The notes: generated by a model from the sequence alone, not told the origin. A DNA stretch of 59,173 bases, filler included, from Circinaria calcarea (GCA_051942165.1; 11 parts of 11 records of this genome joined end to end with filler, not necessarily neighbours in it); one strand, 5' to 3'. Positions 1 to 50,964 are shown, counted from the whole stretch's first letter. Made by a program: numbers and translations.

Positions 1-2
1 GG

Positions 3-480
3 GTGGAAGAGGAAGGGGGGGACGCTGGCTTGAGCGCAGAGACTCCCTCCGAATTGTATTTGCAATACAATACAATTCGGGGTTATGTCTCTGCGACTCT
101 GGAGCTATACAATCGCCAGGTTTCGACCAGGGTGAATTGCGCTCCTTGCCCGACTGGAGTTGCCTTAAAGGTCTCGCGCAGCGAGTTTCGTCGCCGTAGG
201 TCTGAGTACGTGAACCGCGGCGTCGACAACATGAAAGACGGGTATACTGCTGCGCAGGTACCCGACGTCGCTGCCGCTGCCTTCGGCTGGAAAAAGGAGA
301 AGTCGGTCGAGGCCGCGTTGCGCACCTGGGTCGACTTCTTGCTGGGGCATTCGATGCTGATGCGATTGGGCAACCGGCTTATGCTGGAGTTGCCCGATCT
401 GTTTATGACGCCCTTGCCTCGCGAAGGTCCACCCAGCAGTAGCTGCGAAGCCTGGTGCCTCGTTGCTCAAATGGATCACG
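3..480 (+). mobile_element. Truncated Crypton-like (CryptonF / Ndc10-domain-II type) tyrosine-recombinase transposon fragment
   Basis: The translation YNTIRGYVSA...RRRRSEYVNRG..DGY...DFLLGHSMLMRLGNRLMLELPDLF..PLPREGP...CLVAQMDH follows the motif order of fungal Crypton/Ndc10-II proteins. It stops just before the expected GKTN motif. The 5' end is cut by the contig edge. Confidence 0.75.
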
Positions 481-959
481 AAAACGGTTCATCAAATGTA
501 GTGTCAACAGATTTACAAACCTTGTGGCAGCCATCTCCGGAGACCGTCGGAAGCCCAACTATTGCACAGGAAGTAGAAGAAAGCATGGAGTCATCGACGC
601 TTCCAGGTACGACAACGCCTGTTCAGGATAAGTGAATCGACCCTACAATCTCTAAGTCCACCGAGGTCTCCCCTATCCCGACCAGCATGGTCAGCACCGA
701 TCTCCAAGCAGACGTTCATGATCCTATCGAGTCTAAAGAGTTTTGGTCCAAACTCTTCTCTAAACCTGTCGTGCCTCGTCGTGAAGGTCACCAGGAACCT
801 TGTGTCAGCATGCTTACGAAGAAAAGCGGGATGAATTGCGGTAGATCCTTTTGGATGTGTGCCCGACCCTTGGGCCCGACTGGGGCGAAGGAGAGAAATA
901 CACAGTGGAGGTGTCAGACGTTTATATGGTGTAGCGATTGGAATCCTGGGTTCACGTAG
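481..959 (+). pseudogene. APN2: APN2 (AP endonuclease 2 / DNA lyase) 3' fragment, degenerate
   Basis: The C-terminal HDPIESKEFWSKLFSKP..PRREGHQEPC..LTKKSGMNCGRSFWMCARPLGPTGAKERNTQWRCQTFIW is the APN2 GRF zinc-finger end. There is an in-frame TGA at 633-635, the first Zn-ligand Cys appears as Arg (PRREGH vs the usual PxCEGH), and no catalytic domain lies upstream. Confidence 0.85.
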
Positions 960-2088
960 ACAATCTCGTAGAAGAATCTGGAGATATTTGTGGAAGACGA
1001 AGATCTCTATGGGGCGAAAGGGGAGTTGGGCCACGGGAAGGGATATGGTGGTAAATAGTGTGCACGTTGTACATTTCCCAGCTAGCTTAGACTACGAGCG
1101 ACCAATCCAGAGGCAACATCTATTGCTGCATAGTCTCGCGCGGACCCCCAATTCCTTTGTGCATCCTCTAACCCCACGTGATCTTGGTACATCTCCCCTG
1201 AACCACTCATCCTCCAGTCAAACCTGCGCACATGGAGATAAGGAGAAAGTCTCACGCAAAGAAGAGGCTGGTAAAACTTCCCATCCCATCTTAGCGTACC
1301 TGTCTCAGAGGGTCATACAGTCCGAGGTTACGTTTCGGTGTTCATCGCGGTTCCGGATGGGAAAAAAAGGGGGAGGTTAGGGTGAAGGCCCGATCTGGCG
1401 CTAGCGTGGTGTTGGTGATTCGGATGCGGTGAGTCGTACGAGACGAGGGTTCAGCAGTGGGAGTCTAAAAAATGGCTGGGAGGACCAGCCACCTCTTTTT
1501 CTTTGTTTGGGTTCGATGCGCTAGTTGGCTCGGAGATGTGGGGAATTCGGAATTGGGAAGTTGGGAGGAATGTGTCTGTGTTTTTCTTTGTTTACATGGC
1601 TGGATCTGAGACAAGGGATATTGGATTTGAGATCTATCAGCCACGTAGACGTAAAGGCAGTATGAGACTTGACGTTCAATCAGTTGCATTTTCTATTTTG
1701 CAATCTAGATTGCCGTGTGTTCCTATCCTGACCGCCAAGGGGGTTCCTCAATAATCTGTCCATCAACTCTGTTCTATATGCGGGCGCAAAACAAGTATGT
1801 GCTTGATTAGGAAGTTGGTGCTGTATGTGACAGTGCGAATGGAATCATGTAACAATCTGTTTAGGCAATTTGTGCAGTGAAGGGGCGATAACCAAAAAAC
1901 AGCACTCAGTGATCATCCAACACCTTTCCTCCGTCCCTCAAAACCTCCAGTTCAATCTCCTCCGAGTGAAGGGCATCGTTCAATCCCTTCCATCCAATCC
2001 ACCATAAGTCAGAGCAAAAGCCGCGATTGGCCGCAAGGAAGCGGACGGCCAAATGGTATATGTCTCAATTGGTATATGCTCTTTCTGG

Positions 2089-3365
2089 CTATGGCCACGC
2101 CCCATTATTGCGAATCAGCTCCGCAGTATCGACGTAGGCAAACTGTTCATCGAACTGGGAGGTTAGATTGCTGAAGCCGAAATCGTCAGGCCCATCGAGT
2201 GTTCCATTCCAACCAGCTGCGAACTCCGCTTCAAACTGGGACTCGAGGTTGCTCGTTGTCTGCGCGAGTTCATCAAAATCAATCATTGATTCGTAGAACG
2301 CTGCATCATTGGCTGCTTCCTCGCTTCGCCCAGTGAATAGGACAGGAGAATATTGGCTAGCCTGTACCATAGCCTGCGTGGGAGGGGATGGCAAGGATGT
2401 GTTGTTGTAATCCTCTAGCATGAACAGAAGCTTCTCATCTGGAAGATTCTCATCACCTAGATAGACCACAGGATTCCCGGCATCTGTCTTCTCGAGTTCT
2501 GGAAGCTCGCCGATATAGTTCTCGTAAGTGTAGGGTGTAATTAGCTCAGAAGCAAATGTTGAGGCTTGGGAGAGTGCAGAGTCGATGCTGCTCGTTGTAG
2601 CCGTTGTTGGCGGATCGGAGACAGGTGTAACGGAGGTGGGTGTGAAAAGCGTGGTCGACATGCTGGAAAGGACAGCAGCCTTCTTCCGAGTCATACGACG
2701 CTTTCTATCAGTAGGCTTTCGCGGCTGGTAGGAGTACTCAGGATGATCGACGAAGTGCTTCTGCTTAATTTCTTCGGCCATTTCTTTCCAATGCAACTTT
2801 GTTGCTTGATCCTCGTTGCGCCATTGATTTCCCAGGATGATGGCTGTTAAAAAGTTGGCCTGAGTATTTAAAGAAGGTAAATTGAGGACTTACAGATTTG
2901 GGTGTTGAGCATCCCCGGATTCTCAGCGGCAATCAAAGGATGGTGATGCTGACGATACAGAATGAAAGCATTTGGTGGTCGAGGTACCTTAGTTTTCTTC
3001 GGAGCAGCAGCCTTAGGTACCTGTGGACCGTACAACACCGGATTACCCACAGCGCTACGAACCGCAATGATGTGGATGGCATCTAGTGAGGCATCCTCAA
3101 CCACAGTCACTGGCGACTGAATCAGATATCTAAAAAGTCAGCTTTGAAATGTAGGGAAGATTTGGAAGGTCAAATACCTGAAACGTGTGGCAATGATGTC
3201 CAATCCTTGCTGCCCAATGATGGTCTTGAAAGCCATCGGAAGCAGTACATCATTGACGGCACCAGAGCTCACCTGGCTTGACACATACTGCCAAACCTGG
3301 TCAATGACTTGAGGGACAGTGATGGTAGCACCCTGCGGTGGATCTGCAGTCATTGTGCTAGCCAT
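2089..3365 (-). CDS. MAT1-2-1: Mating-type HMG-box transcription factor MAT1-2-1 (3 exons: 3365-3178, 3129-2894, 2843-2089; about 392 aa)
   Basis: KVPRPPNAFILYRQHHHP...NTQI/SIILGNQW...KHFVDHPEYSYQPRKP is a MATA-HMG box with the conserved intron in the Ser codon. GT-AG introns of 48 and 50 nt restore one open frame. The gene is adjacent to and convergent with the APN2 3' end. Confidence 0.95.
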
Positions 3366-3593
3366 TATTACAGTTCTTGGAATCCTGACCAATGTAATGA
3401 ATTAGAGATGATTTATCTCTTTGAAGATTTGATCTGGTTGCTGTAAAAGATCGCAGCTTGCTACAAGTTCTGCAAGTTGCTTTGGGTGGTTGTAGATGCG
3501 GAGAGGTTTGTAGAAAGCAGCTCGAAGATTAAAACTCTTATCCCTAGGTACTAGACTAGCGTAGGTTTTCCGGAAAAGAGGAGGCTGGTTATT

Positions 3594-3602
3594 TTCTTTG
3601 TT
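3594..3602. promoter_or_regulatory. Candidate HMG-box (Ste11/TR-box type) site TTCTTTGTT in the divergent MAT promoter
   Basis: Exact TTCTTTGTT in the 345-bp intergenic region between the MAT1-2-1 ATG (3365) and the auxiliary gene ATG (3711). Confidence 0.4.
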
Positions 3603-3710
3603 GACACGCTAAATCGGAGTGAACGATTAGCGATTACAACACCGAGAATCCAAGAAATTTCTACGTCTTGTTCCGATAGTAAGCTCTTTAATCAGTTCCA
3701 CGGTCTGAAT

Positions 3711-4448
3711 ATGGCCACCACTCGTAAAAAATCTAAGCATTTTCGACGAACCCTTCACCCTGTATGGAAGAAGCTCCGTAAGGCAACGCGGAAATATCAC
3801 AGCCTAGAATTCGGTGAAAAAACCTACTTGGGTGAATTTTTATGCCTTACCCAGCGTGCCATCCTTCGCGCCCAGGTAGAAATCCCAATCGAAACCATCA
3901 TACAGCTCCACAGGCTATACAAACACCATCAGAAAAAAGGGAACAAGATCCTTGCTGCTATTGGTACGAATGCACATCTCGGTAACACGACAGAGGACGA
4001 CGAAGATATTATGTCTCGTTGTATAATCCGAACTTTATTAGAAGAGTGTGTATATGTTGCGGTTTACCAATTATCCATGAATTCGCTAACTATGTGGATA
4101 AGGCGTCTCAAGTCAAAGAGCCAGCTCTTAGGCATCGTCCAATGCGATCCTAATGTCACGAAGAGGTCCCAGGAGTTGTTTGAGCAGGTCTTCCAAGCAC
4201 AAGGAATGCCGAATGAGGCAGAAACGGAATTCCTGGCTACTGTTGCTCAGATCGGCGCTGGAGAGGTTGATGAGTGGTGTTAGTAGCATTCTTATTTGAC
4301 AAAAATGGCTTGCTAACCTTTTTCTTCAGTTACTGCAACGCAGGGCAGGCTGCGAGTTCTTGGTCCATCCCTCGTTACCCAGTGGGCTATGGAGAAAATA
4401 CGTCTCAGGGAAGTTGAGAGGCATAAGAAGGTTCCTACACGGCATTAA
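3711..4448 (+). CDS. Putative auxiliary MAT1-2 idiomorph gene of unknown function (positional analogue of MAT1-2-4 / MAT1-2-14-type genes)
   Basis: 190-codon ORF head-to-head with MAT1-2-1. Probable introns are 4046-4102 (GCTAAC branch, frame-preserving) and 4279-4329 (GTTAGT..GCTAAC..CAG), giving a last exon ending at TAA 4448. The N-terminus is very basic. Confidence 0.65.
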
Positions 4449-4610
4449 AGCTCGCCACGACGTTACCGAATAGCGCTGAATACCAACAAGGGGCTTACAG
4501 ACTGCACGCAAGATGGTTGTATATGAGATTTTTGTTTGCGTTTTCGAATCAGAACTTATATAAAATAAACTACCTTTTGGGGTTTTTAAAGAAGGTTAAA
4601 ACAAACGCAT

Positions 4611-4924
4611 TGTAAGGGTGCTAGGATAGGCTAGACTTGTATAAGAGATAGAGTCACTCCAGGTGCACGATTACTTGAAGCGTAGACGATCTGTTACTTC
4701 AATTGGTAATGGCTATAAGCATGCTATTCTAGAAAGTGGGAATAGCCTGCCTATATACTGGCTCCGCTCCCTATGATCCCTATGCTCCCCTGGGATCACC
4801 CGGATCACCCACGTGACGTGCTCCCGGTGTTCCCCGCCAAGTCCTGGGATCACCAGGAGCACCCGGCTCCTCGTTAACCCCTCCCGGACCGTGGTAGCAC
4901 ATGCTATGGCGTGGCGCCATAACA
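4611..4924 (-). mobile_element. Solo LTR-like element (314 bp)
   Basis: On the minus strand it reads TGTTATGGCGCCAC...GTATATAG...TAGCACCCTTACA: TG..CA termini, a TATA-like box, and several shared blocks with the element at 4999. No matching target-site duplication. Confidence 0.65.
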
Positions 4925-4998
4925 CTATGTTCTAAATTAATAATTGTGAAGAAATGCAGGCACCGGCAGCAGTAAATAGCCATAGCAATGGCCCTATG

Positions 4999-5298
4999 TG
5001 TAATGGCGCCACCAGCCATGACCAGTACTACGCGTACCAAGGGTATTCAGGAGGATGATCCGAGTGATCCCTTGTGTAACGTATGGGATCAATGGGAGCA
5101 CTGGTGATCCAAGTGATCCGGTTGATCTGGCTATGGAGCAGTGGGATCATAGGGATCACTACTATGACCCCTGTCATGAAAAGGGTATATAGTCACAGTC
5201 CTTTCCGTAGCATTTGACCTGTGTGGTCAAGACCTTACAAGTGTAGCAATATACTTCTATTGTCACTTATTACTTGCCAAGTGATTGGTATAGAACCC
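4999..5298 (+). mobile_element. LTR-like element related to 4611-4924, opposite orientation, cut by the contig end
   Basis: Begins TGTAATGGCGCCAC and shares GGGAGCAC, GGTGATCC, GGGATCATAGGGA and GTATATAG blocks with the first copy. It ends TAGAACCC, versus TAGCACCC-TTACA in the first copy. Confidence 0.6.
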
Positions 5299-5398
5299 NN
5301 NNNNNNNNNNNNNNNNNNNNNNNNNNNNNNNNNNNNNNNNNNTTAATTAATTAANNNNNNNNNNNNNNNNNNNNNNNNNNNNNNNNNNNNNNNNNNNN
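5299..5398. other. Artificial contig spacer 1 (N44-TTAATTAATTAA-N44)
   Basis: 100-bp linker with a palindromic stop-codon core, identical at all ten junctions. Confidence 0.99.
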
Positions 5399-5399
5399 A

Positions 5400-5940
5400 T
5401 ACAATCGTTTCCACAGCATCTTCTACTCTAAAAACCCCCAATTCAACCCCAACCTAAAGACAACTTCTCCACCCTCTTCCCCTTCTTTCCCTTCTTTGAA
5501 TACAGAAATCTCATCCGTCCACCCTCGAAAAAAACCCCCTCCTCTCAAGATTTCCCCAAAATCCGCAACATCCCTCTCCTCCCCTCCACCCCCATCTAGA
5601 CTCCGCTAGACTCCGCTAGAAAATCTATAGTTAGGCGGCGGTATTTCCTACTCCCTACTCCCTCCTCCCTACTCGGGTCGAGCCCGGGTCGAGCCCGGTT
5701 TGAAAGAAAAGAAAAGGGAGGAAAGAATGGAAAGGGAGGGAAAACGGGAGGGATAGGATAGGGAAGGGGAGGAAGACGGGTCTAGAAGAGGAAAAAGAGA
5801 AGAGAAGAGAAGAGAAGAGGAAAAAGGAGAGAAGAGCAAGAAATGACGGAGGAGAGGAGAGGAGGAGGGAGATGGAAGGAATAGAAGGGAAGGAATGGAG
5901 GGCAAGGAGTGGAGAGGAGAGGAGAGTGGAAAAGCCGAGC
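5400..5940. repeat. Low-complexity region: pyrimidine-rich tract, short tandem duplications (CTAGACTCCG x2, CGGGTCGAGCC x2), then purine-rich GA tract
   Basis: Read directly from the sequence. Confidence 0.8.
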
Positions 5941-6333
5941 AGATTCGAAAGCGAAAACGTACTGTCATAATGGTAAATTTCAGTCAACGAGTAGAGTATG
6001 CAAAGGTATGCCATTACTAAATGTTTCCAAAGTACTATCGGAGCGGCAAGAAAAGACGCCAAATATGTAAAAGATGTCAAAATGCCCCAAGGCTGGCTAC
6101 CATTGCTGACCGCTGAAGATTCACAAACCGGAAATTGAAGAAAAAAAGCATAGGCAAAAAGTCTAGATCCGCACTTGATGATACATTTTTCAGCAGCCCG
6201 TCTATCTCCTCTCCGAATTCCAAATCTAAACTCCGACGCACGCGCAGACCGATACCAGCTCAATCTTCATTGTCTGACCTTTTTGTTGAAAAAGACTGTG
6301 TTGTGTGGCGAATGCATGATGGAGGGAAGGCTT

Positions 6334-7062
6334 CTATCTCCTCTGGATACCGCAGGCTTCGAGGCACGAGTCGACACCGAGAGCGACATTTCTTGGGATC
6401 ATGGTGCGGAAGGCGTCAATGTCTTGGCCGTTGACGGTTCCATCACCGCCGAGGGCAGCCCGGACAATGTCAGATTGGAAGCCGAAGAAAGTCGGCGTGG
6501 TGGCCTGGACACCGGGGTCTTCGTCGGCGAAGCCAGCAACGAAGACGCTCGGTTCGCAAAGGGGGTTGAACTCGGTGTGCATTGCGCCCATGGGAAAGAC
6601 AGTCATCTGCCACTGTGTGAGTGGGTTGACGACAGTAGGCAGACCGTTCTCAAGGGTGAACTCGGCCACCAGGGCACCCTGGGCGACGATGTTGATCTCC
6701 GAGCTACGGGGATGGATGTGAGGGGTATTGAAGCCGCAGGGCCCGAGGAATCCGACAGTCATTGATACACCGCTCCCAATCAGAGCCGGGAACGAGGTGC
6801 GGTCAGCATTGACAGTTCGACCTCCTAGTCCGATGGTGTTGGTGCTGTTGCCGGTCGCCCGGAGAAAGTCGAAGATGAAATCTTCGGGCTGGAGAAGACT
6901 TAGACGCTCGACGGCTGTGGGAGCGAGAATAAGGGCCTCGATCAAAGCTGCGTCGTCCTGCCTTGGGTTGGTCCCATTGGCGCCGATTTGCCTTTTTTCA
7001 ATGGGAGAGGCGATGGCAACGGTGGCCAGAAGGGCGGTTGCGAGAACACTGAAGCTATGCAT
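6334..7062 (-). CDS. Secreted cupin, spherulin-1 / germin-like protein (242 aa, intronless)
   Basis: Signal peptide plus a KR processing site. Germin-type motifs GFNTPHIHPRSSEINIV and GAMHTEFNP. Confidence 0.9.
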   Translation of the reverse strand: MHSFSVLATALLATVAIASPIEKRQIGANGTNPRQDDAALIEALILAPTAVERLSLLQPEDFIFDFLRATGNSTNTIGLGGRTVNADRTSFPALIGSGVSMTVGFLGPCGFNTPHIHPRSSEINIVAQGALVAEFTLENGLPTVVNPLTQWQMTVFPMGAMHTEFNPLCEPSVFVAGFADEDPGVQATTPTFFGFQSDIVRAALGGDGTVNGQDIDAFRTMIPRNVALGVDSCLEACGIQRR

Positions 7063-9745: not shown

Positions 9746-10064
9746 CTCTATCATGGAGAGGAAAAACTTAATGGAGACTAGGATCGATAGCTAATAGAAA
9801 AGAGTATGAAGGAAGGGTCAAAGATCAGTATCGAGCGGGAATGGACCGATTTCAAAGAAAACTTCAAGATTCCTCCAAGTGCAGTATTGCTGAGTGATGA
9901 ACAGATGATAACTCCTTTATCAATTCTATATTCCGCCCACCATCATTTCCCAACATCCTCGTCCGCCTTCCATCATCTCATTCCTAAATCTTCCCATCCC
10001 ACCATCAAGCTTACATCTAGAAAAAAAATTCTACCTCCGCGTTCCACGTTCCTACTCTCTACAC

Positions 10065-10560
10065 TCAAGTATACTGCCATGCCACCACGCCAGCCTCGAA
10101 TGTGACCGGGTCAAACCCAACACAAGCACTTGCATTTCCTCCCGGCACATCCGCACCCCTCAACCCCGCAATCTTTGCAAATACCTGATGGACATCCGTC
10201 CCGACGTTGCCCGTCACACCGGTCGAACAGGTCACCAACTTTCCATTCGCTCCTAACCCAAAGAAGCCAAATACATTATCCGCAGTGCGCTTGAATTCCC
10301 TCCTAGACAGCGCCGTCTGGAACCGCGGCTGAATGTACGTACCTAAGTAAACCCCAGCGCCCCATTCGACCGCCCATTACACCTGCTGACCTCCCCGGAA
10401 CCACGACGTCGAGGGATGCGAAGCCGTCGTGGACGAACTACGGAAGTGCCCGGTGACCGTGGGGGACATTGGTCGGCCGGTAGGGGACAAAAGGTTGCAG
10501 GGCTCTCGGCCAATGTAGAAAGCTCAATCAGCTAGCGGCATTGACGAATCCGGTGCTGGA
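10065..10560 (-). pseudogene. Degenerate secreted 'IgE-binding protein' / PhiA-like cell-wall protein
   Basis: Fragments in shifting frames: VNAA..FYIG..PATFCP...DVVVPG/GQQV*..NGALGFT*...ACVGF...AWQYT*. Several stops and 1-nt indels. Confidence 0.6.
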
Positions 10561-10695
10561 TACTTCCGCCGTTGCCGTCCTGTTTGAGGACCTAGATGTT
10601 GAAAGGGGTGGTGGGATCGGGGGCTTGTAGGCGCCGTGGCGGTGGCGCTGGAGGTGGAGGTGGAGGTGGAGCTGGCCTCGAGGGCGGGGGAAGGA

Positions 10696-10795
10696 NNNNN
10701 NNNNNNNNNNNNNNNNNNNNNNNNNNNNNNNNNNNNNNNTTAATTAATTAANNNNNNNNNNNNNNNNNNNNNNNNNNNNNNNNNNNNNNNNNNNN
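10696..10795. other. Artificial contig spacer 2
   Basis: N44-TTAATTAATTAA-N44. Confidence 0.99.
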
Positions 10796-10831
10796 CCCCC
10801 ACACCCCAAGTCCCAAGTCTGTCGCACAACC

Positions 10832-11767
10832 CTCTACCACCTTCAAACCCTTTTAGCTCTTTACCCGCAGCGACCTCAAAACAATCGTATACCCCGGAAA
10901 CCGCCTTCGGGATTCTCTCCGCCATCGCCGGCCCCAGCCTCACCGCCAACTCCCTCCCAAGGTGTCTCCCCATCCTGCTGCGTAACCCCCCAAGGTTCTC
11001 CTCTGAAACTGGGCTCAACCTCCTCATTTTCGACATCGCCCAAGCAACGCCTCCCCGGCCTCCGTGGTCGAAAGACCGCCTCAACAAACCCTGGCGTGCC
11101 ATCCCTTCGGGCTGTATCTCCGAGCCCCAGGCGAAACGCGTACTGTTCCGGGTCCTGCCGCTCGTGTTGACGGCTACGCTGTTCTTGGGGAGTTCGGAGG
11201 AGGCGGTGCTGATTGATGATGGTGCTGGATTGGATGTACAACAATCTCGGGGGCGCGGATGAGCACTACGTGGTGAAGAACATCATGAACGCGATCGAGT
11301 TCGCGTACTATAGTTCAGGTTCCCTGCGCATCGCGAGTGGATACCCAGAAATCAAACTGAACGGGTTGGCATATAGCTGGCTGGCGATGGTGTTCTTGAT
11401 TGTGGCGTCGACCTTGCAGATCCAGGATCTCCCTGACCAGGTAGGTGACCGAGCGAGGCATCAGAACACCGCTCCGCTGGTACTGGGCCATGCGTGGGCT
11501 CGATGGACGGTTGCGGTTGCTGCGCTTGCCTGGTCGTTTCTCTGCCCTTTGTTCTGGAGTATTAATATCTATGCATATATTCTGCCTGTCGTGGTCGGGG
11601 GGTATCTTGCCGGGAGGGTTTTATACCCACGAAGCGTGGCGGTGGATGAGACATCATGGAAAACATGGTGTGTGTGGACGGGAACACTTTACCTTCTGCC
11701 GTTGGCGAAGGAGTATGGCGTCTTCTTTCGGCCTGAGAATATGGCTCAACACAGAGTAGAAAGTTGA
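10832..11767 (+). pseudogene. UbiA-family membrane prenyltransferase / UbiA-type terpene cyclase-like gene, 5' half disrupted
   Basis: Motifs LFTRSDLKTIV, FDIA.QRLP..E/DRLNKPWRAIPSG, WMYNNLGGADEH and QIQDLPDQVGDRAR. The 5' half has at least five single-base insertions and TAG/TGA at expected Trp positions; the 3' about 184 codons are open. Confidence 0.8.
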
Positions 11768-40965: not shown

Positions 40966-42565
40966 TTATCCTAGTACATAGGTAGCTTGCCCGGACTTTA
41001 ATTGGATCTAAGATTTTATATTAGCACCGACAGAGGTTTTCATCTAGCGCAACCTAGACTTACCGTGCATCCAGGGACGTCCACAACCTTTGCGCCGGGA
41101 ACAGTTGCCGCATGCCCTGATTGACAATTCTTCAAGTCATAGTTATCAGGAGTCCCAGCTCCACAATATGTGCCATTCCCATTGACAGTAGTATAGAAAC
41201 ATGCGACACCAGGGTCGAAATCACCCTGGAGTTCTACAGTGTAGTCCAAGGACTTGTAGGAGCTGGGGAAATTCTGCTCCGTTGACTGTATGGAAAGCCA
41301 GGTGAGACCTGAGGCATCAGTACCAACACCAAAGACAACCGGGGCCCAATTGCCTGCGTAGGAACCATCAGTGCTCCAGGTACAGGCGTCATTTACCGCG
41401 GTGCCTTGCATATTGGCATAGTACTCTGCACTAGTAGCTAAGTTCTCATGCTTGTAGTACGTGGATCCGTCGGGGCAAGTAAGCGGACTTGTTTTGCCAG
41501 GTTGGGTGTTAAGTGGCACTGTCTCGCCTTCGACACCTGTGACGATTTAGAAGCCTATCACATCCAAGATGACACTTAGGATCACTTACCAGGATAATCA
41601 GTACGGCAGATTGCAGCGTTCTTTGAGAGATTGTTTTGTACTTTGACTTTTCCTGTACCCTTGATGCAAAGCGTGTCGGACAGTCCAGGGTTTGTGAGGT
41701 GAAGTTTACCGTCTGAACCGCACATAAGACCACCGATAGATTCTCCTTTTGCTCCTTGCGTTGATGGCCATTGAGACTTTTGATAACCTGGTGGGCATGC
41801 GTATGAGCACATGGCAGTCTTTCCATCTTTTTCCGCGCAAAATGGGTGACTTTGGTCCTTGACCGCAGTGTCAATGTTGATCGCACCATTATCGCCAATG
41901 TTCATGTACTGAATACCGGACCAGCCACCAACACCTTCCCAGTTAATAGGAATTGCACCATACTCAGAAGGGAAGACTGAACAGTCAATTTCCCCGTCGG
42001 GAAACTTTCTATCCACACCCGAATTGCTGGCTATTTGAACATCGTATGATTTTGAGTCCACGGAAGAAGATGAAGAACCTGCCAGAGGATCGAAATTCCC
42101 CACTGCTGGTGTAGACGTTGCTGCAGCTGTAGAGGCCATACTAAACGATGATGGAGTCGATTGCTGCGCGAGCTGTTTCCCAGGAGTACCCGCGACTGAG
42201 GGAGACGAGGGAGTAGGTGCGGGTGTACCGGTGGACGTAGACGCAGAGGCCGACGATGAAGCAGGTCCTGCAGCAGCCTGAGGAACTGGAGCTGCAGCAG
42301 GCGCATCTTTTGCAGTGCATGGGTCCGGGTTGTTAGAATCCTCCACCCAGTGCAGCCTGCCAGCACGAATGCCATTGCACACCTCAGACTGCGAAATGGG
42401 CTGACCATTCAACTCGTACATCACCACGGTGGAAGCGACTACGTTAGTGACCTCGGTAACGACGGGGACTCGCTTGACCACGTGGCGATGGTGATGCTTA
42501 TGGGGATGCGCTGCAACGAGAGAGCCAGCTGTCGCAAGCGTCACGGCCACGTTGGAGAATTTCAT
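40966..42565 (-). CDS. SUN-family secreted beta-1,3-glucanase (GH132, Sun1/Sim1-like), 3 exons
   Basis: Signal peptide, His-rich/KR leader and Ser/Thr linker, followed by FPDGEIDCSVFPSEYGA, CSYACPPGYQKSQWP..QG..GESIGGL, AICRTDYPG and GNWAP. Confidence 0.93.
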
Positions 42566-43034
42566 CGTGTGAAAAGGATACAACGTTTGAGGTTGCGGAT
42601 ATCTGTAAGGATAGGCGCTTGAGTCTATCGAAGACTCGGGTAGTGACTACGTGGATCCTTCGAGGACTTGAGGGTGGTTGAATGAGTGTTGCGTGCTGTG
42701 ATAGCTTGTCTGTTGCTGCGGACAACAAAGTTAGCGTCTTGCGTAGAGGTATATCTTGTAGGGAGATTGCATCTGGGATAGCCAGTATCCTCAAATCAAT
42801 CTTAGACCATGAGGGAGAGGGCTTCATACTTTGCGCGCCGAGCGTGGATGGTAGGAGTGGTAGGATTGGGTGAACGGGCTTTGAACGAAGCACGATCGGA
42901 ACCGACTTGCTGAAGGTTGAGTAAGTTGTTGTTTGAGATAGTCTCCAAAAGAATGTGGTAGGGAGTGCAAGACTTCCAGGTCGTAAGGAGTGCTGCTGAA
43001 GCAGAGGAATGTCTGTGTTACAATGAATGTGGTG

Positions 43035-45532: not shown

Positions 45533-48415
45533 TCACTGAAAGACATAAATCACCCCCGCCCGATCCACACTGACCGTCATGCCCACCGGATACTCCACAA
45601 ATGCCACATCGAGGATAACATCTAGATGACTCCGCAACAGTTGTTGCTGTTGCTGCGAGATGACCATCGACCGGGGCGGCCGCACATTCGATCTCTTGGC
45701 CGCAGTGTTCGCTTCCGTTTTGGCGGTCGCTGCTCCTGTCGCGGTCGTCTGGACAACTTGTTCGCTGTATACCGTGAGTGACGTGGTCGGATGCGTGGTG
45801 ATGATCTTTACGCGCGGTTCATCGCTCTGGAGGCCATTGACAACCGTAGACGATTCCACGCGGTTCAGGTCCCAGAAGTGGACCTTACGATCCGGGCCGC
45901 CGGTGAGGAGAAATCCATTCTTCGCATCCTTGCCGTCATCGGTATCCAAGCCGACGGCGAGGGCGCGAACATCGACATCGACACCGTTACCTTTGCCACC
46001 ACTGGGCGTTTCCAAGGCGGTGGCGAACCGATTAAGCATCGCTTCCGGTTTCTCATCGTCTAACCGGGAAAGCTCGTAAGATTTCAGATTCTCCTTATCA
46101 GGAGTTAGTGAACTGCCCGCGCGATATACTTCGCGGCATTGCTCTCTCTCCACGTCCCAGATAATGATTTCACCGCGTCCGCTGCCGCCAGCGATACAGA
46201 TCCAGCGACCATGGCCCTTGAAAGGATGTATGTGAAGGCGGTGGATCGAAGAACCCCCCGCTAGTCTAAAGGCCTTGAGATGAAGGCGGAATCGAAGGTC
46301 CCAGAGATCAAGGATCCCATGAGATGTACCAACTAAGAGCCAGTTGCGCTTACGATCCAGGCAAAAGCAAGTAGGTGTTCCATGGTGGACAGGGTTCTCG
46401 AAATCATACAGGACATTCATGGTACGTAGGTCCAATGCTAGAACTCGGGATGTGTTCGTTGCCAGTAATAGGACTGATTTTGCATCCGCTCGGAAATGTT
46501 CAGACCAGACAGCATACTCACCGACCGGAAGCTGATAATCTCGGACCAACTGCAGCTTTCCATATTTTGACGTATCACTTGTGTGCGTACAATCAACCTT
46601 GACGATATGCACACTTCCATCGGTGGCACAACTCACAAAAGCATGTGTATTCTGAATGAATGTAATACTCTTGACCTTCGAGCCTTCTTGGTGTCTATGG
46701 GTGTTGCGCGATCGATGGACTAGGTTGCGCTCCAACCTTAGTGTATCCCAGATCTTCACGCTACCATCGTCTGAAGCTGTGATGAAAAAAAGGTGGTCCG
46801 GAGACGGTAAGACGCGATTAATTGGCCCAGTATGCTCGCCGAAGGTAGCAACCAGAATGCCTTGGGGCCGCCAGGAGGGATCAGGTTCCTGAGCTTCAGG
46901 CTTATTGAGCATCCTCGTGCTACTAATTGGCGTCACCGAAGGACCATAATCAACACTATCACTTGTGTGGTTTTCCGATGCCAGAGTATCGAGCAGCCTT
47001 TGCACGTTAGGATCGTTTCCGTCATAAGTGTGACCACCATTAATTTGGGCCGAAGGGTTAGGCTTCCTCTTGAGCTTGTCGCTGAACACATCTGATGATC
47101 TAATCTGATCTTCATGAGTTAATGGAGCGTCCAATTGCCCAATCACATTAGTGGTAGTTGTGGCTGTTTCAGCAGATGACTTGGAGGTTTCCCTTCGATT
47201 CAACAGGTTGATAGCACTGGATTTGTGCCCAACACCGGGAGATTTCTCACGCGCAGTACTCGTCTTCAGAGAATCGGTTCGTGGCAGCGTACCGTCGCTA
47301 CGGATATTATTTCTTATGTCCCGGTTTAGCAAGCGAGAGGAGCGTCTTGAATCGGAAGTGGATTGAAAGTTTGTGTGATCATGTGACGGATTGCGAGTAC
47401 CGGGTGATGATGACAGAGGTGATGGCACATTTGATGAGGTGCGACTGGGTGCATCGGAGTTAATTGGTAAGGATAATGAGGGTAAATTTCCATTGAGTCG
47501 CTCCTTTCGACTACTTACGTATGATTGCTTCGAGTACTTATGGGAGTCATCAATAGTCGTTGATGCATCCAGCAGGGCATCCGCAATTGTATGTACCTTG
47601 CGGGCATTGCCGGCCTGATAGGTGTGATAAGAGGAACGACGCTGCGTCTGTTTCTGTTTCTTGTGTTCTTCGAAGAAAACTGTCTGCTTGGTTACCTTCA
47701 GCTCCTCTAAGCTGATGATGCCGTTGAACCGAGACGACGGATCGGTAGGTACATCTTTGGGCCTCTTTGGAGCCATGCGACCGATATATTCTTTCAACGT
47801 CAATAGTTTGAATTCATCATCTTGGGCCATGCCTAGATTTCGTAAGCGTGTTAGCCATTGTTCGTCTTCGTCATTCTTCGGAATCTTCCGTAGCGCATGT
47901 GGTCCAAGGTCTTTGGACGATATGGTTTGGATGGCTTGATCAGTGCCTCCGAACGAGAATGCACGCTGCTGTTGCACAGGTTTCCAGAATAACCCACGCT
48001 CAACCTTCAACGCCCAAGTTACCGCCATCTCGAGAACAGGCCTCGGAAGGGGACGCTTTAGCGAATCGAGGATTGCCGTCTCGGATATATTTTGAATAGG
48101 GGTTTTGAGGTAGGGTTGGAGTAGAGGCATCACTATACAGTACGTATCTGCGGTTGAAAGGAATAGCGCAGCAGCCGTAATATAATGAACCGCTGCTTCC
48201 CTAATCCAGATATTTGGATGTACCATAAATCTTGCAACAAGGTCTACCATTTCCCAGATCTTGGATCGCTGGAACAGTCCGAGCTCCGCCATACTTGCAA
48301 ACGACGAAAGGACCCGTTCCACCACGAACTCTTCAGGGTCTGTAAGGGCTTGCACCATGAGGGGGAGTATAAAATCCTCTAGGCTGGATCCACCAACAAA
48401 TGTGGCAACACCAAC
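45533..48415 (-). CDS. VPS15: Vps15 / PIK3R4 phosphoinositide 3-kinase regulatory subunit, C-terminal HEAT and WD40 part (5'-truncated)
   Basis: QALTDPEEFVVERVL, HPNIWIREAA, WRPQGILVATFGEH, SDDGSVKIWDTLRLERN, ENPVHHGTPTCFC and GMTVSVDRAGVIYVFQ. Confidence 0.95.
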   Translation of the reverse strand, partial: VGVATFVGGSSLEDFILPLMVQALTDPEEFVVERVLSSFASMAELGLFQRSKIWEMVDLVARFMVHPNIWIREAAVHYITAAALFLSTADTYCIVMPLLQPYLKTPIQNISETAILDSLKRPLPRPVLEMAVTWALKVERGLFWKPVQQQRAFSFGGTDQAIQTISSKDLGPHALRKIPKNDEDEQWLTRLRNLGMAQDDEFKLLTLKEYIGRMAPKRPKDVPTDPSSRFNGIISLEELKVTKQTVFFEEHKKQKQTQRRSSYHTYQAGNARKVHTIADALLDASTTIDDSHKYSKQSYVSSRKERLNGNLPSLSLPINSDAPSRTSSNVPSPLSSSPGTRNPSHDHTNFQSTSDSRRSSRLLNRDIRNNIRSDGTLPRTDSLKTSTAREKSPGVGHKSSAINLLNRRETSKSSAETATTTTNVIGQLDAPLTHEDQIRSSDVFSDKLKRKPNPSAQINGGHTYDGNDPNVQRLLDTLASENHTSDSVDYGPSVTPISSTRMLNKPEAQEPDPSWRPQGILVATFGEHTGPINRVLPSPDHLFFITASDDGSVKIWDTLRLERNLVHRSRNTHRHQEGSKVKSITFIQNTHAFVSCATDGSVHIVKVDCTHTSDTSKYGKLQLVRDYQLPVGEYAVWSEHFRADAKSVLLLATNTSRVLALDLRTMNVLYDFENPVHHGTPTCFCLDRKRNWLLVGTSHGILDLWDLRFRLHLKAFRLAGGSSIHRLHIHPFKGHGRWICIAGGSGRGEIIIWDVEREQCREVYRAGSSLTPDKENLKSYELSRLDDEKPEAMLNRFATALETPSGGKGNGVDVDVRALAVGLDTDDGKDAKNGFLLTGGPDRKVHFWDLNRVESSTVVNGLQSDEPRVKIITTHPTTSLTVYSEQVVQTTATGAATAKTEANTAAKRSNVRPPRSMVISQQQQQLLRSHLDVILDVAFVEYPVGMTVSVDRAGVIYVFQ

Positions 48416-48980: not shown

Positions 48981-50964
48981 TCAAACCTCATTACTCGCAT
49001 AGCTCACCCTCTCGAGGGCGCAAAACTCCTCCTTCACACTCCGCATACTGACAAACCGTCCCAGCAAATTCACACTGCCCGCCTTGTCATTGGTGCCGCT
49101 CGCCCGCGCCCCCCCAAACGGCTGCTGCCCCACCACAGCCCCGGTACTCTTGCAGTTGATGTAAAAGTTACCCGCCGAATCCCGGAGCGCATCCTCGGCG
49201 AAGCGGATGGCCTCGCGGTCTTTGGCGAAGACGGAGCCCGTGAGGGCGTAATCGGATGTGGAGTCGACGAGCCTGCAGACGTCTGCGAAGGCGGTTGGGG
49301 AAGAGTCGTCATAGAGGTAGCAGGTGAGGATTGGGCCAAAGAGTTCGGTGCTGAGGAGGGAGTGAGAAGGAGAGGCGGCCAGGTAAATGGTGGGGTGGAT
49401 GAAGTAGCCCTTGCTGTCGTCGTAAGTGCCTCCGACGAGGAGTTCGAGGTCCTTGTCGTCCTTGGCGTCGTCGATGACTTTTGCGAGTTTTTTGAACGAG
49501 GCGGCGTGAATTACGGGGCCGACGAAGTTTGCAAAGTCTTCGACTGGGCCGACCTTGAGTGCTTTGGTTTCGGCAATCAGAGCTGGTTTGATAGATGGCC
49601 AGAGGGAAGAGGGAATATAGACGCGGGATGTGGCGCTGCATTTTTGACCTTGGTATTCAAAAGCGCCACGGACGGTGTTGATGACGCTGTTTTTGACATC
49701 GGCACTGTTATGAATCAGGTGATAGTTTTTACCACCTGTCTCGCCAACTATACGTGGGTAGCCTCGGTATCTATCCTCAGCGACGCCAGCACCAATTTTT
49801 CCAAAGAGACTGCGGAAAACAGCGGTGCTGCCGGTATAATGAAGGCTGGCAAATTGACGGTGGCTAAGCACGATGCTGGTAACCTCCTCGGCATCGCCCG
49901 GCACAAATTGGATAACGTTAGGAGGCAGACCGGCTTCCATCAGGATGCTATATACTATCCAATTTGAAGCAATTGCTGATGGCGATGGTTTCCAGACAAC
50001 AACATTTCCCATCAGAGCCGGAGCACAGGGAAGGTTTCCCCCAATGGCCGTGAAGTTAAAAGGGCTGACGGCATATACAAAACCTTCGAGGGGTCGATAT
50101 TCAACCCGGCTATGGTATGTTAGCCCAATGACTCAATACAGTCAAGGGGCATTCGAGACTGACTTCCAGACACCAGGCGAGTTATGCACCGGTTGCTGTG
50201 CATACATCTCCTGCGCATACTGTACATTGAATCTGGCGCAATCAGTACGACGATCCGGAGTAAGGGTATTCTTCCTCCAACTAACCGAAAAAAGTCACAG
50301 AGCTCTGCTGCGGCATCAATCTCGGCCTGCCACGCGTTCTTTCCCTGTCCAAGCATCGCTGTAGCCATGACCTCATATCGATACTTGCCAGCAATCAAAT
50401 CTGCGGCCTTGAGGAATATAGCAGCCCTGTCTGCAAAAGGCAGAGTTTCCCATGCTTGTTTGGCAGATAAAGCTGAATCGATTGCTTTGGACACATCGGA
50501 AGCGCTCGCATTCGAGTATTTGGCAATGGGATCTGAATGCGAGGATGGATTGGCTTGTGTAAGGAGGGACTCGCTCTTGATCTGATCCGTTTGTGTCAGG
50601 AGCAATCATCTTCGGTCTCAGCCGCGACTCACTTCTTTCCCTCCGATCACCGCGGGTACTTCGAGAGGAGCCTTCTTCTTCAATTGTTCGAGAGCAGATT
50701 CCAGCGCTTTCCGGTCTAGCGAGCCCTTTGCGTAGTGTTTCTAGCCATTGGAAGTCAGACAACGGATGCAACGTGTCTCGATATGGTGGCTGGCCTTACA
50801 TTGGGCTCGTTGTCCACCTTTGGGACCTTGTATGTAGCTATTGTAGCCATGTTTACCGGAGCCTTATATGCGGATAGCCTGTAGAGCGATGCCAAGCTTC
50901 TTCCGTGAAGTCGAGGTTGATACGAACTGAGGGGAGAGAGATAGCGTAAGCTCTTTGTCGCCAT
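48981..50964 (-). CDS. PUT2: Delta-1-pyrroline-5-carboxylate dehydrogenase, mitochondrial (multi-exon; alternative ATG at 50994)
   Basis: QGKNAWQAEIDAAAELCDF, RPLEGFVYAVSPFNFTAIGGN, GETGGKN, AFEYQGQKCSA and GAVVGQQPFGGARASGTNDKAG. Confidence 0.96.

Follow-up and report, generated by a model that had tools for sequence, protein, structure and literature searches.

Intact MAT1-2 genes beside a decaying APN2 remnant and repeats in the lichen-forming fungus Circinaria calcarea

Has the MAT1-2 mating-type locus of the lichen-forming fungus Circinaria calcarea moved, or have its surroundings decayed where it stands? The question is raised by a contig of 5,298 bp, the first of 11 pieces joined in the window analysed here (the whole stretch of 59,173 nucleotides taken from GCA_051942165.1). 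On this contig MAT1-2-1 and a divergent auxiliary gene lie beside a 3' remnant of APN2, which is fused to a fragment of a Crypton-type mobile element. A first-pass annotation, made from the sequence, proposed a relocated or duplicated mating-type locus. The evidence leans instead, if modestly, toward repeat-associated damage in place. The contig holds the following features, from left to right.

1..480, plus strand: fragment of a Crypton-type tyrosine recombinase, about residues 30-190 of proteins of about 650-780 aa; runs off the left end of the contig.
481..959, plus strand: APN2 pseudogene remnant, about the last 158 codons, with the native stop at 957-959.
960..2088, no strand: spacer of 1,129 bp from the APN2 3' end to that of MAT1-2-1, delimited from the list of open reading frames (ORFs).
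2089..3365, minus strand: MAT1-2-1, intact, with exons 3365..3178, 3129..2894 and 2843..2089.
3711..4473, plus strand: MAT1-2 auxiliary gene, head-to-head with MAT1-2-1; its first ORF, 3711-4280, is open.
4611..5241, no strand: non-coding repeat of unassigned class, with an imperfect inverted repeat inside; the right limit is approximate.

The left edge carries the rearrangement. The ORF at 3-482 resembles 280 proteins at E<=0.001 (phmmer), the best with 92% identity. Pfam scans of 14 of these relatives find NDC10_II in 12, and GCR1_C as well in 11; we take this domain content to be that of Crypton-F tyrosine-recombinase elements. The ORF on the contig matches NDC10_II weakly (E 7.6e-4, profile positions 27-72 of 317), and the rest of the NDC10_II region, together with GCR1_C, is missing from its approximately 160 residues. 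The piece is a fragment, and cannot be an active element. It has no blastn match in the other 10 contigs of the window, and tblastn finds no match outside 6-500. In a biocrust metagenome run, X1 (Logan contigs, word share 0.06, compared at 85% likeness), summed depth is 38-58 across the Crypton piece versus about 5-7.5 over the MAT genes, which marks the piece as multi-copy.

Past 480, two X1 contigs that match 341-480 switch to unlike sequence, which begins GTCAGT. Several database relatives diverge after the same Gly; full-length relatives read on. The end of the Crypton homology seems to coincide exactly with a 5' splice site. One would not expect a breakpoint to fall on a splice donor, and one candidate explanation is that a deletion may have been copied back from a spliced transcript. 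On the contig, the reading frame remains open from the Crypton piece across 480/481 into the APN2 remnant, as far as a TGA at 633.

The sequence beyond the junction belongs to APN2. Bases 636-959 yield 467 protein matches at E<=0.001, of which the best (91% identity) is P0009, an APN2 last-exon ORF; comparison with this closest ORF places the start of APN2 homology at about 481. Full-length homologues of the remnant are AP endonuclease 2 proteins with Exo_endo_phos. This catalytic domain is absent from the contig, by Pfam and by tblastn with three full-length APN2 proteins. The GRF zinc finger is matched weakly (E 0.025, 15.1 bits against a cut-off of 25.9). The remnant was aligned to the last 175 residues of 120 listed homologues (the best 120 of the 467). 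An in-frame TGA stands at 633-635, within the variable linker, and codon 780-782 encodes Arg where 120 of the 120 listed homologues have Cys. This invariant Cys, the first of the GRF finger, is a zinc ligand. The remnant matches 57 of the 59 columns that are conserved in at least 90%, and two or more departures at such columns are also seen in 27 of the 120 listed homologues.

To judge from its sequence, this APN2 is truncated and dead, and only recently so. Both the TGA and the Cys-to-Arg change lie away from the junction, which argues for a real truncation and against a functional APN2 misjoined during assembly. The contig thus shows a rearrangement that fused the first coding portion of a Crypton to the APN2 gene, about 158 codons upstream of its stop, and the remnant has been decaying since.

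The mating-type genes themselves show no such damage. MAT1-2-1 has three exons without an internal stop, separated by introns of 48 and 50 nt with GT..AG ends. The joined exons encode 392 aa, an exact match to the database protein P0001, and the HMG box is complete (HMG_box profile positions 2-69 of 69, E 2.1e-20, Pfam). P0001 is annotated as hypothetical protein Q9187_006793 of a C. calcarea MAG (metagenome-assembled genome), and the contig on which it is recorded also measures 5,298 bp. Relatives in the protein database are 88%, 75% and 76% identical. A literature search found no publication pairing Circinaria with MAT1-2-1. The 3' ends of MAT1-2-1 and APN2 face each other across 1,129 bp. 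No gene was recognised from the ORF list in this spacer (960-2088), and Pfam returned nothing for 835-1380. (A remnant of the last MAT1-1-1 exon has been reported inside other Lecanoromycete MAT1-2 idiomorphs, according to the available part of that literature.)

The auxiliary ORF begins at 3711 on the opposite strand, 345 bp upstream of MAT1-2-1, and runs for 190 codons without a stop. We infer a short intron near 4266-4329, followed by a second exon that runs to a stop at 4471-4473. The sole match in a large protein database is P0129, with 86% identity; no Pfam family scores above its cut-off, and the best Atlas score, 0.75, is uninformative. All eight related loci from metagenomes, termed L001-L008, carry a homologue at the equivalent position and in the same orientation (tblastn; E 6e-19 in L001-L004, about 1.5e-17 in L005-L008). 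Since position and orientation agree in all eight, the ORF is a conserved Lecanoromycete MAT1-2 auxiliary gene. It is probably the Lecanoromycete MAT1-2-14, a name assigned here by position only; MAT1-2-14 is what the auxiliary gene is called in the available part of Ament-Velasquez et al. 2021. The portion of the Lepraria paper at hand describes MAT1-2-1 and MAT1-2-14 as tail-to-tail, whereas both the contig studied here and L001 have them head-to-head. The first-pass annotation had named a Crypton-like fragment on the left, a damaged APN2 3' end, an open MAT1-2-1 and a divergent auxiliary gene, and each of these identifications stands.

How far the arrangement departs from a standard locus can be read from the same eight loci, which came from one scan of metagenome contigs and whose MAT1-2-1 proteins are 33-34% identical to that of the window. 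Four of them, L001-L004, are canonical.

SLA2: 3460-6402, plus strand.
Auxiliary gene: 9668-9142, minus strand.
MAT1-2-1: 10001-11051, plus strand.
APN2: 14693-12620, minus strand, followed by COX6A and ANAPC5.

The order, strands and spacing of the auxiliary gene, MAT1-2-1 and APN2 are the same here as in the window (the gap between the facing 3' ends is about 1.57 kb in L001). In the other four, L005-L008, a core of about 3.1 kb is 93% identical to L001, and collinearity is lost on both sides of it. In these loci the auxiliary gene and MAT1-2-1 are intact (region L005:8581-15591), and tblastn at E<=1 finds no APN2, SLA2 or COX6A in the available flanks (10 kb on each side for L005 and L008, less on one side for L006 and L007), the SLA2 hits being at chance level (E 0.39-0.96). 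On its SLA2 side, L005 carries an 8-kb stretch of 26-32% GC. On the APN2 side of MAT1-2-1, L005-L008 carry duplicated and inverted flank pieces, as well as a frameshifted Crypton fragment (L005:15188-15591, tblastn) about 0.9 kb past the break. The four contigs are about 99% identical to one another over 9-12 kb; because they agree so closely, the state appears stable in that lineage.

The right edge is also a repeat, of another kind. It begins 137 bp beyond the stop of the auxiliary gene and contains arms at 4768-4925 and 4998-5155 that match, inverted, at 110 of 147 ungapped columns. Their local score is 88, versus a mean of 22.7 and a maximum of 33 in 200 shuffles. Across 4603-5133 the summed X1 depth reaches 19-84, and loose ends occur at 4611, 4751, 4983 and 4999. 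The repeat has no blastn match in the other 10 contigs, and its short ORFs, judged from the ORF list, look non-genic. The first-pass annotation had seen two elements resembling long terminal repeats (LTRs) here. An LTR retrotransposon or solo LTRs are not supported: no direct repeat exceeds 22 nt, self-comparison by blastn gives one weak inverted match only, the bases flanking 4611 and about 5239 differ and so form no target-site duplication, and the ORFs do not look like those of a gene. What is present is an imperfect inverted repeat, with no direct LTR pair.

Nor do these elements bound the region on the right, as had also been proposed. Position 5298 is simply where a contig ends, with a linker and unrelated contigs beyond.

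5299..5398, no strand: artificial linker, 44 N, TTAATTAATTAA and 44 N; marks a contig end and is not genomic.
10740, 16136, 21531, 26924, 32313, 37696, 43079, 48460 and 53841: nine further linker cores.

The window consists of 11 size-sorted pieces (5298, 5297, 5296, 5295, 5293, 5289, 5283, 5283, 5281, 5281 and 5277 bp, in order) strung together by such linkers; the 12-mer TTAATTAATTAA occurs 10 times, against a chance expectation of 0. The 12-mer is its own reverse complement and contains stop codons. Linkers of this N44-TTAATTAATTAA-N44 kind serve to build pseudomolecules. Positions 1-5298 are therefore one entire contig of a metagenome-assembled genome (MAG) of a lichen-forming fungus, and features read over a linker are meaningless.

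The remaining 10 contigs are unrelated to the MAT contig and encode ordinary fungal families (MFS_1, Aldedh, SUN, UDG, VPS15-like and Cupin_1). None of their 79 ORFs of at least 110 aa has ANTH, I_LWEQ, Exo_endo_phos or any mating-type Pfam family. Three of their genes can be placed as follows, and nothing about them is unusual.

41043-42646, minus strand, on another contig: SUN-family beta-glucosidase.
45536-48415, minus strand, on another contig: VPS15-like WD40 protein.
48984-50605, minus strand, on another contig: aldehyde dehydrogenase, split by an intron.

A tblastn search of the whole window with SLA2 and COX6A (from L001) and the three full-length APN2 proteins matched only 555-956. 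The earlier statement that no SLA2 is visible thus holds for the entire window, and its biological reading does not: a contig end followed by a linker makes the absence of SLA2 uninformative.

The same X1 run bears on both edges. At low depth it contains sequence from a relative, about 90% identical across 1726-4610, where MAT1-2-1 and the auxiliary gene lie. The contig of this relative over 4222-4610 leaves the window at 4610, continuing with 94 nt of unlike sequence; the repeat that starts at 4611 is consequently absent from the relative at this site. No X1 contig bridges 480/481 or 4610/4611, and 532-1593 is uncovered, which proves nothing. In X1 the contig is multi-copy at its two ends and single-copy-like between them. 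The contig stops at or just past repeats on both sides, as short-read assemblies do.

How, then, did the locus arise? The account that we hold to be probable, by a narrow measure, is that the repeat-associated damage arose in place: the individual would be a heterothallic one of MAT1-2 type, with this contig at its ancestral MAT locus. Mobile-element insertions would have accumulated around the locus, where recombination is low; a deletion after insertion would have affected the APN2 flank; and SLA2, with any intact or 5' APN2, would lie on other contigs past the repeats. Several observations are consistent with this sequence of events: order, strands and spacing are those of L001-L004; MAT1-2-1 and the auxiliary gene are intact; and the contig is whole, with multi-copy ends and a single-copy-like middle in X1. 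Moreover, the available part of Pizarro et al. 2019 gives a single idiomorph between SLA2 and APN2 in all 39 Lecanoromycete genomes studied, so that the prior favours damage in place over homothallism by translocation.

This account also has evidence to answer. No SLA2, COX6A or 5' APN2 is linked on the contig by tblastn, which leaves ancestral placement unsupported. A copied segment, too, would be expected to show a live MAT1-2-1 next to a partial, dead APN2, and native order, orientation and spacing are expected under either history. If the damage happened in place, either this haplotype has lost a repair gene that is widely conserved, or a second copy exists unseen; the MAG's own APN2 is not among the 120 listed of the 467 matches, a result that fits either true loss or an incomplete MAG. 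Finally, the Crypton piece ends mid-protein, so at least two events (insertion and deletion) are needed. All of these weigh against damage in place.

Relocation is the next to survive, as an unlikely but substantial competitor: a MAT1-2 cassette, extending from inside APN2 to past the auxiliary gene, would have been relocated or duplicated and would now sit in a repeat-rich region, with the ancestral APN2-SLA2 site elsewhere, possibly with MAT1-1 (homothallism). The decaying partial APN2 suits this idea, as do the edges of the unique segment, 481 and 4610, both of which abut multi-copy repeats, and the X1 relative that continues differently at 4610. L005-L008 provide a stable MAT1-2 core, in another lichen lineage, without APN2 or SLA2 within 8-10 kb, and Aspergillus fischeri provides a precedent, in which (according to the accessible part of a review) the MAT region underwent localised duplication and then translocation. 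However, the window shows neither another MAT locus nor MAT1-1-1, an SLA2 remnant or a complete APN2. A segment copied with both flanks should carry an SLA2 remnant at its right edge, which has none, and the 39 genomes of the survey cited above are all heterothallic with a single locus. Even the discovery of MAT1-1 would have to be read with care: the part of the Letharia work available to us reports that both idiomorphs may occur in one thallus with no homothallism involved, so MAT1-1 in a thallus metagenome alone would not prove homothallism. The observations first offered in support of relocation, a missing SLA2 and a right boundary, are contig-end artefacts; the dead APN2 flank is real.

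Rather improbable is a local partial duplication, in which a 3' APN2 fragment was trapped on the idiomorph side and an intact APN2 lies just past the Crypton in the same locus. Such a fragment would be young, as the agreement at 57 of 59 conserved columns suggests, and the duplicated and inverted flank pieces of L005-L008 lie on the same side of MAT1-2-1. Yet no near-identical second APN2 3' end is present among the 120 listed matches, the best of which, at 91%, comes from the ENA collection, whereas the MAT1-2-1 record of the window comes from NCBI; and neither a repeat search nor self-comparison gives a direct sign of duplication on the contig.

Least persuasive is an assembly or binning artefact (a chimeric join at 480/481 or 4610/4611, or sequence from a second genotype or another fungus of the thallus), for although a 5.3-kb contig from a metagenome bin with both junctions at repeat edges invites the suspicion, the APN2 piece shows relaxed constraint in two independent ways, its stop codon and the loss of the invariant Cys, neither of which would follow from a chimeric fusion with a functional gene, and the repeat search and self-comparison reveal no sequence common to both sides of a junction that could mislead an assembler.

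Damage in place is thus the preferred account, and a bolder thought may be set beside it. Crypton fragments occur at the APN2-side edge both in the window and in the unrelated L005-L008, which prompts the proposal, highly speculative and in our estimate doubtful, that the MAT1-2 core left the SLA2-APN2 site as a cassette with the help of Crypton recombination, and that a second MAT locus may exist. If true, it would give the Lecanoromycetes their first genetically homothallic, or cassette-bearing, member. The mating of always-fertile lichen fungi is still debated.

Whichever account holds, the dead APN2 flank and edge repeats of the window, together with L005-L008, show that an intact SLA2-MAT-APN2 architecture is not universal. 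Either the surroundings of MAT degenerate in place, like those of other non-recombining loci, or the locus can move. For practice, such loci will be overlooked or misinterpreted when lichen MAGs are mating-typed by way of APN2 and SLA2, and windows joined by linkers should not be read across them.

Set against known systems, the locus resembles several of them in part. The A. fischeri case is similar in that a live HMG MAT gene adjoins a flanking gene that is present only in part. Rydholm et al. 2007 reportedly give the details of the flanks of that second MAT locus. In A. fischeri the second and the intact locus are both seen in one genome, whereas one locus is visible here; and the contig has a partial APN2 at one edge and, unlike in A. 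fischeri, no SLA2 remnant in 4474-5298, where the contig ends.

The canonical Lecanoromycete MAT1-2 locus, as far as the available sources describe it, shares more with the window: one HMG-box MAT1-2-1, one lineage-restricted auxiliary gene, and a convergent APN2. The auxiliary gene is on the SLA2 side of MAT1-2-1 in both. The departures are at the flanks. In the window APN2 is not intact but a decaying 3' remnant (about 158 codons, with a TGA and the Cys lost) fused to a Crypton fragment, a repeat follows 137 bp after the auxiliary gene, and SLA2 is not on the contig.

A parallel to those flanks is found in L005-L008. These loci retain no APN2 remnant, and their Crypton piece represents a different part of the protein and lies on the other strand relative to MAT1-2-1. 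Nevertheless, a distant Lecanoromycete (MAT1-2-1 34% identical) displays the same general plan as the window: a MAT1-2 core with repeats at both edges, and a Crypton on the APN2 side.

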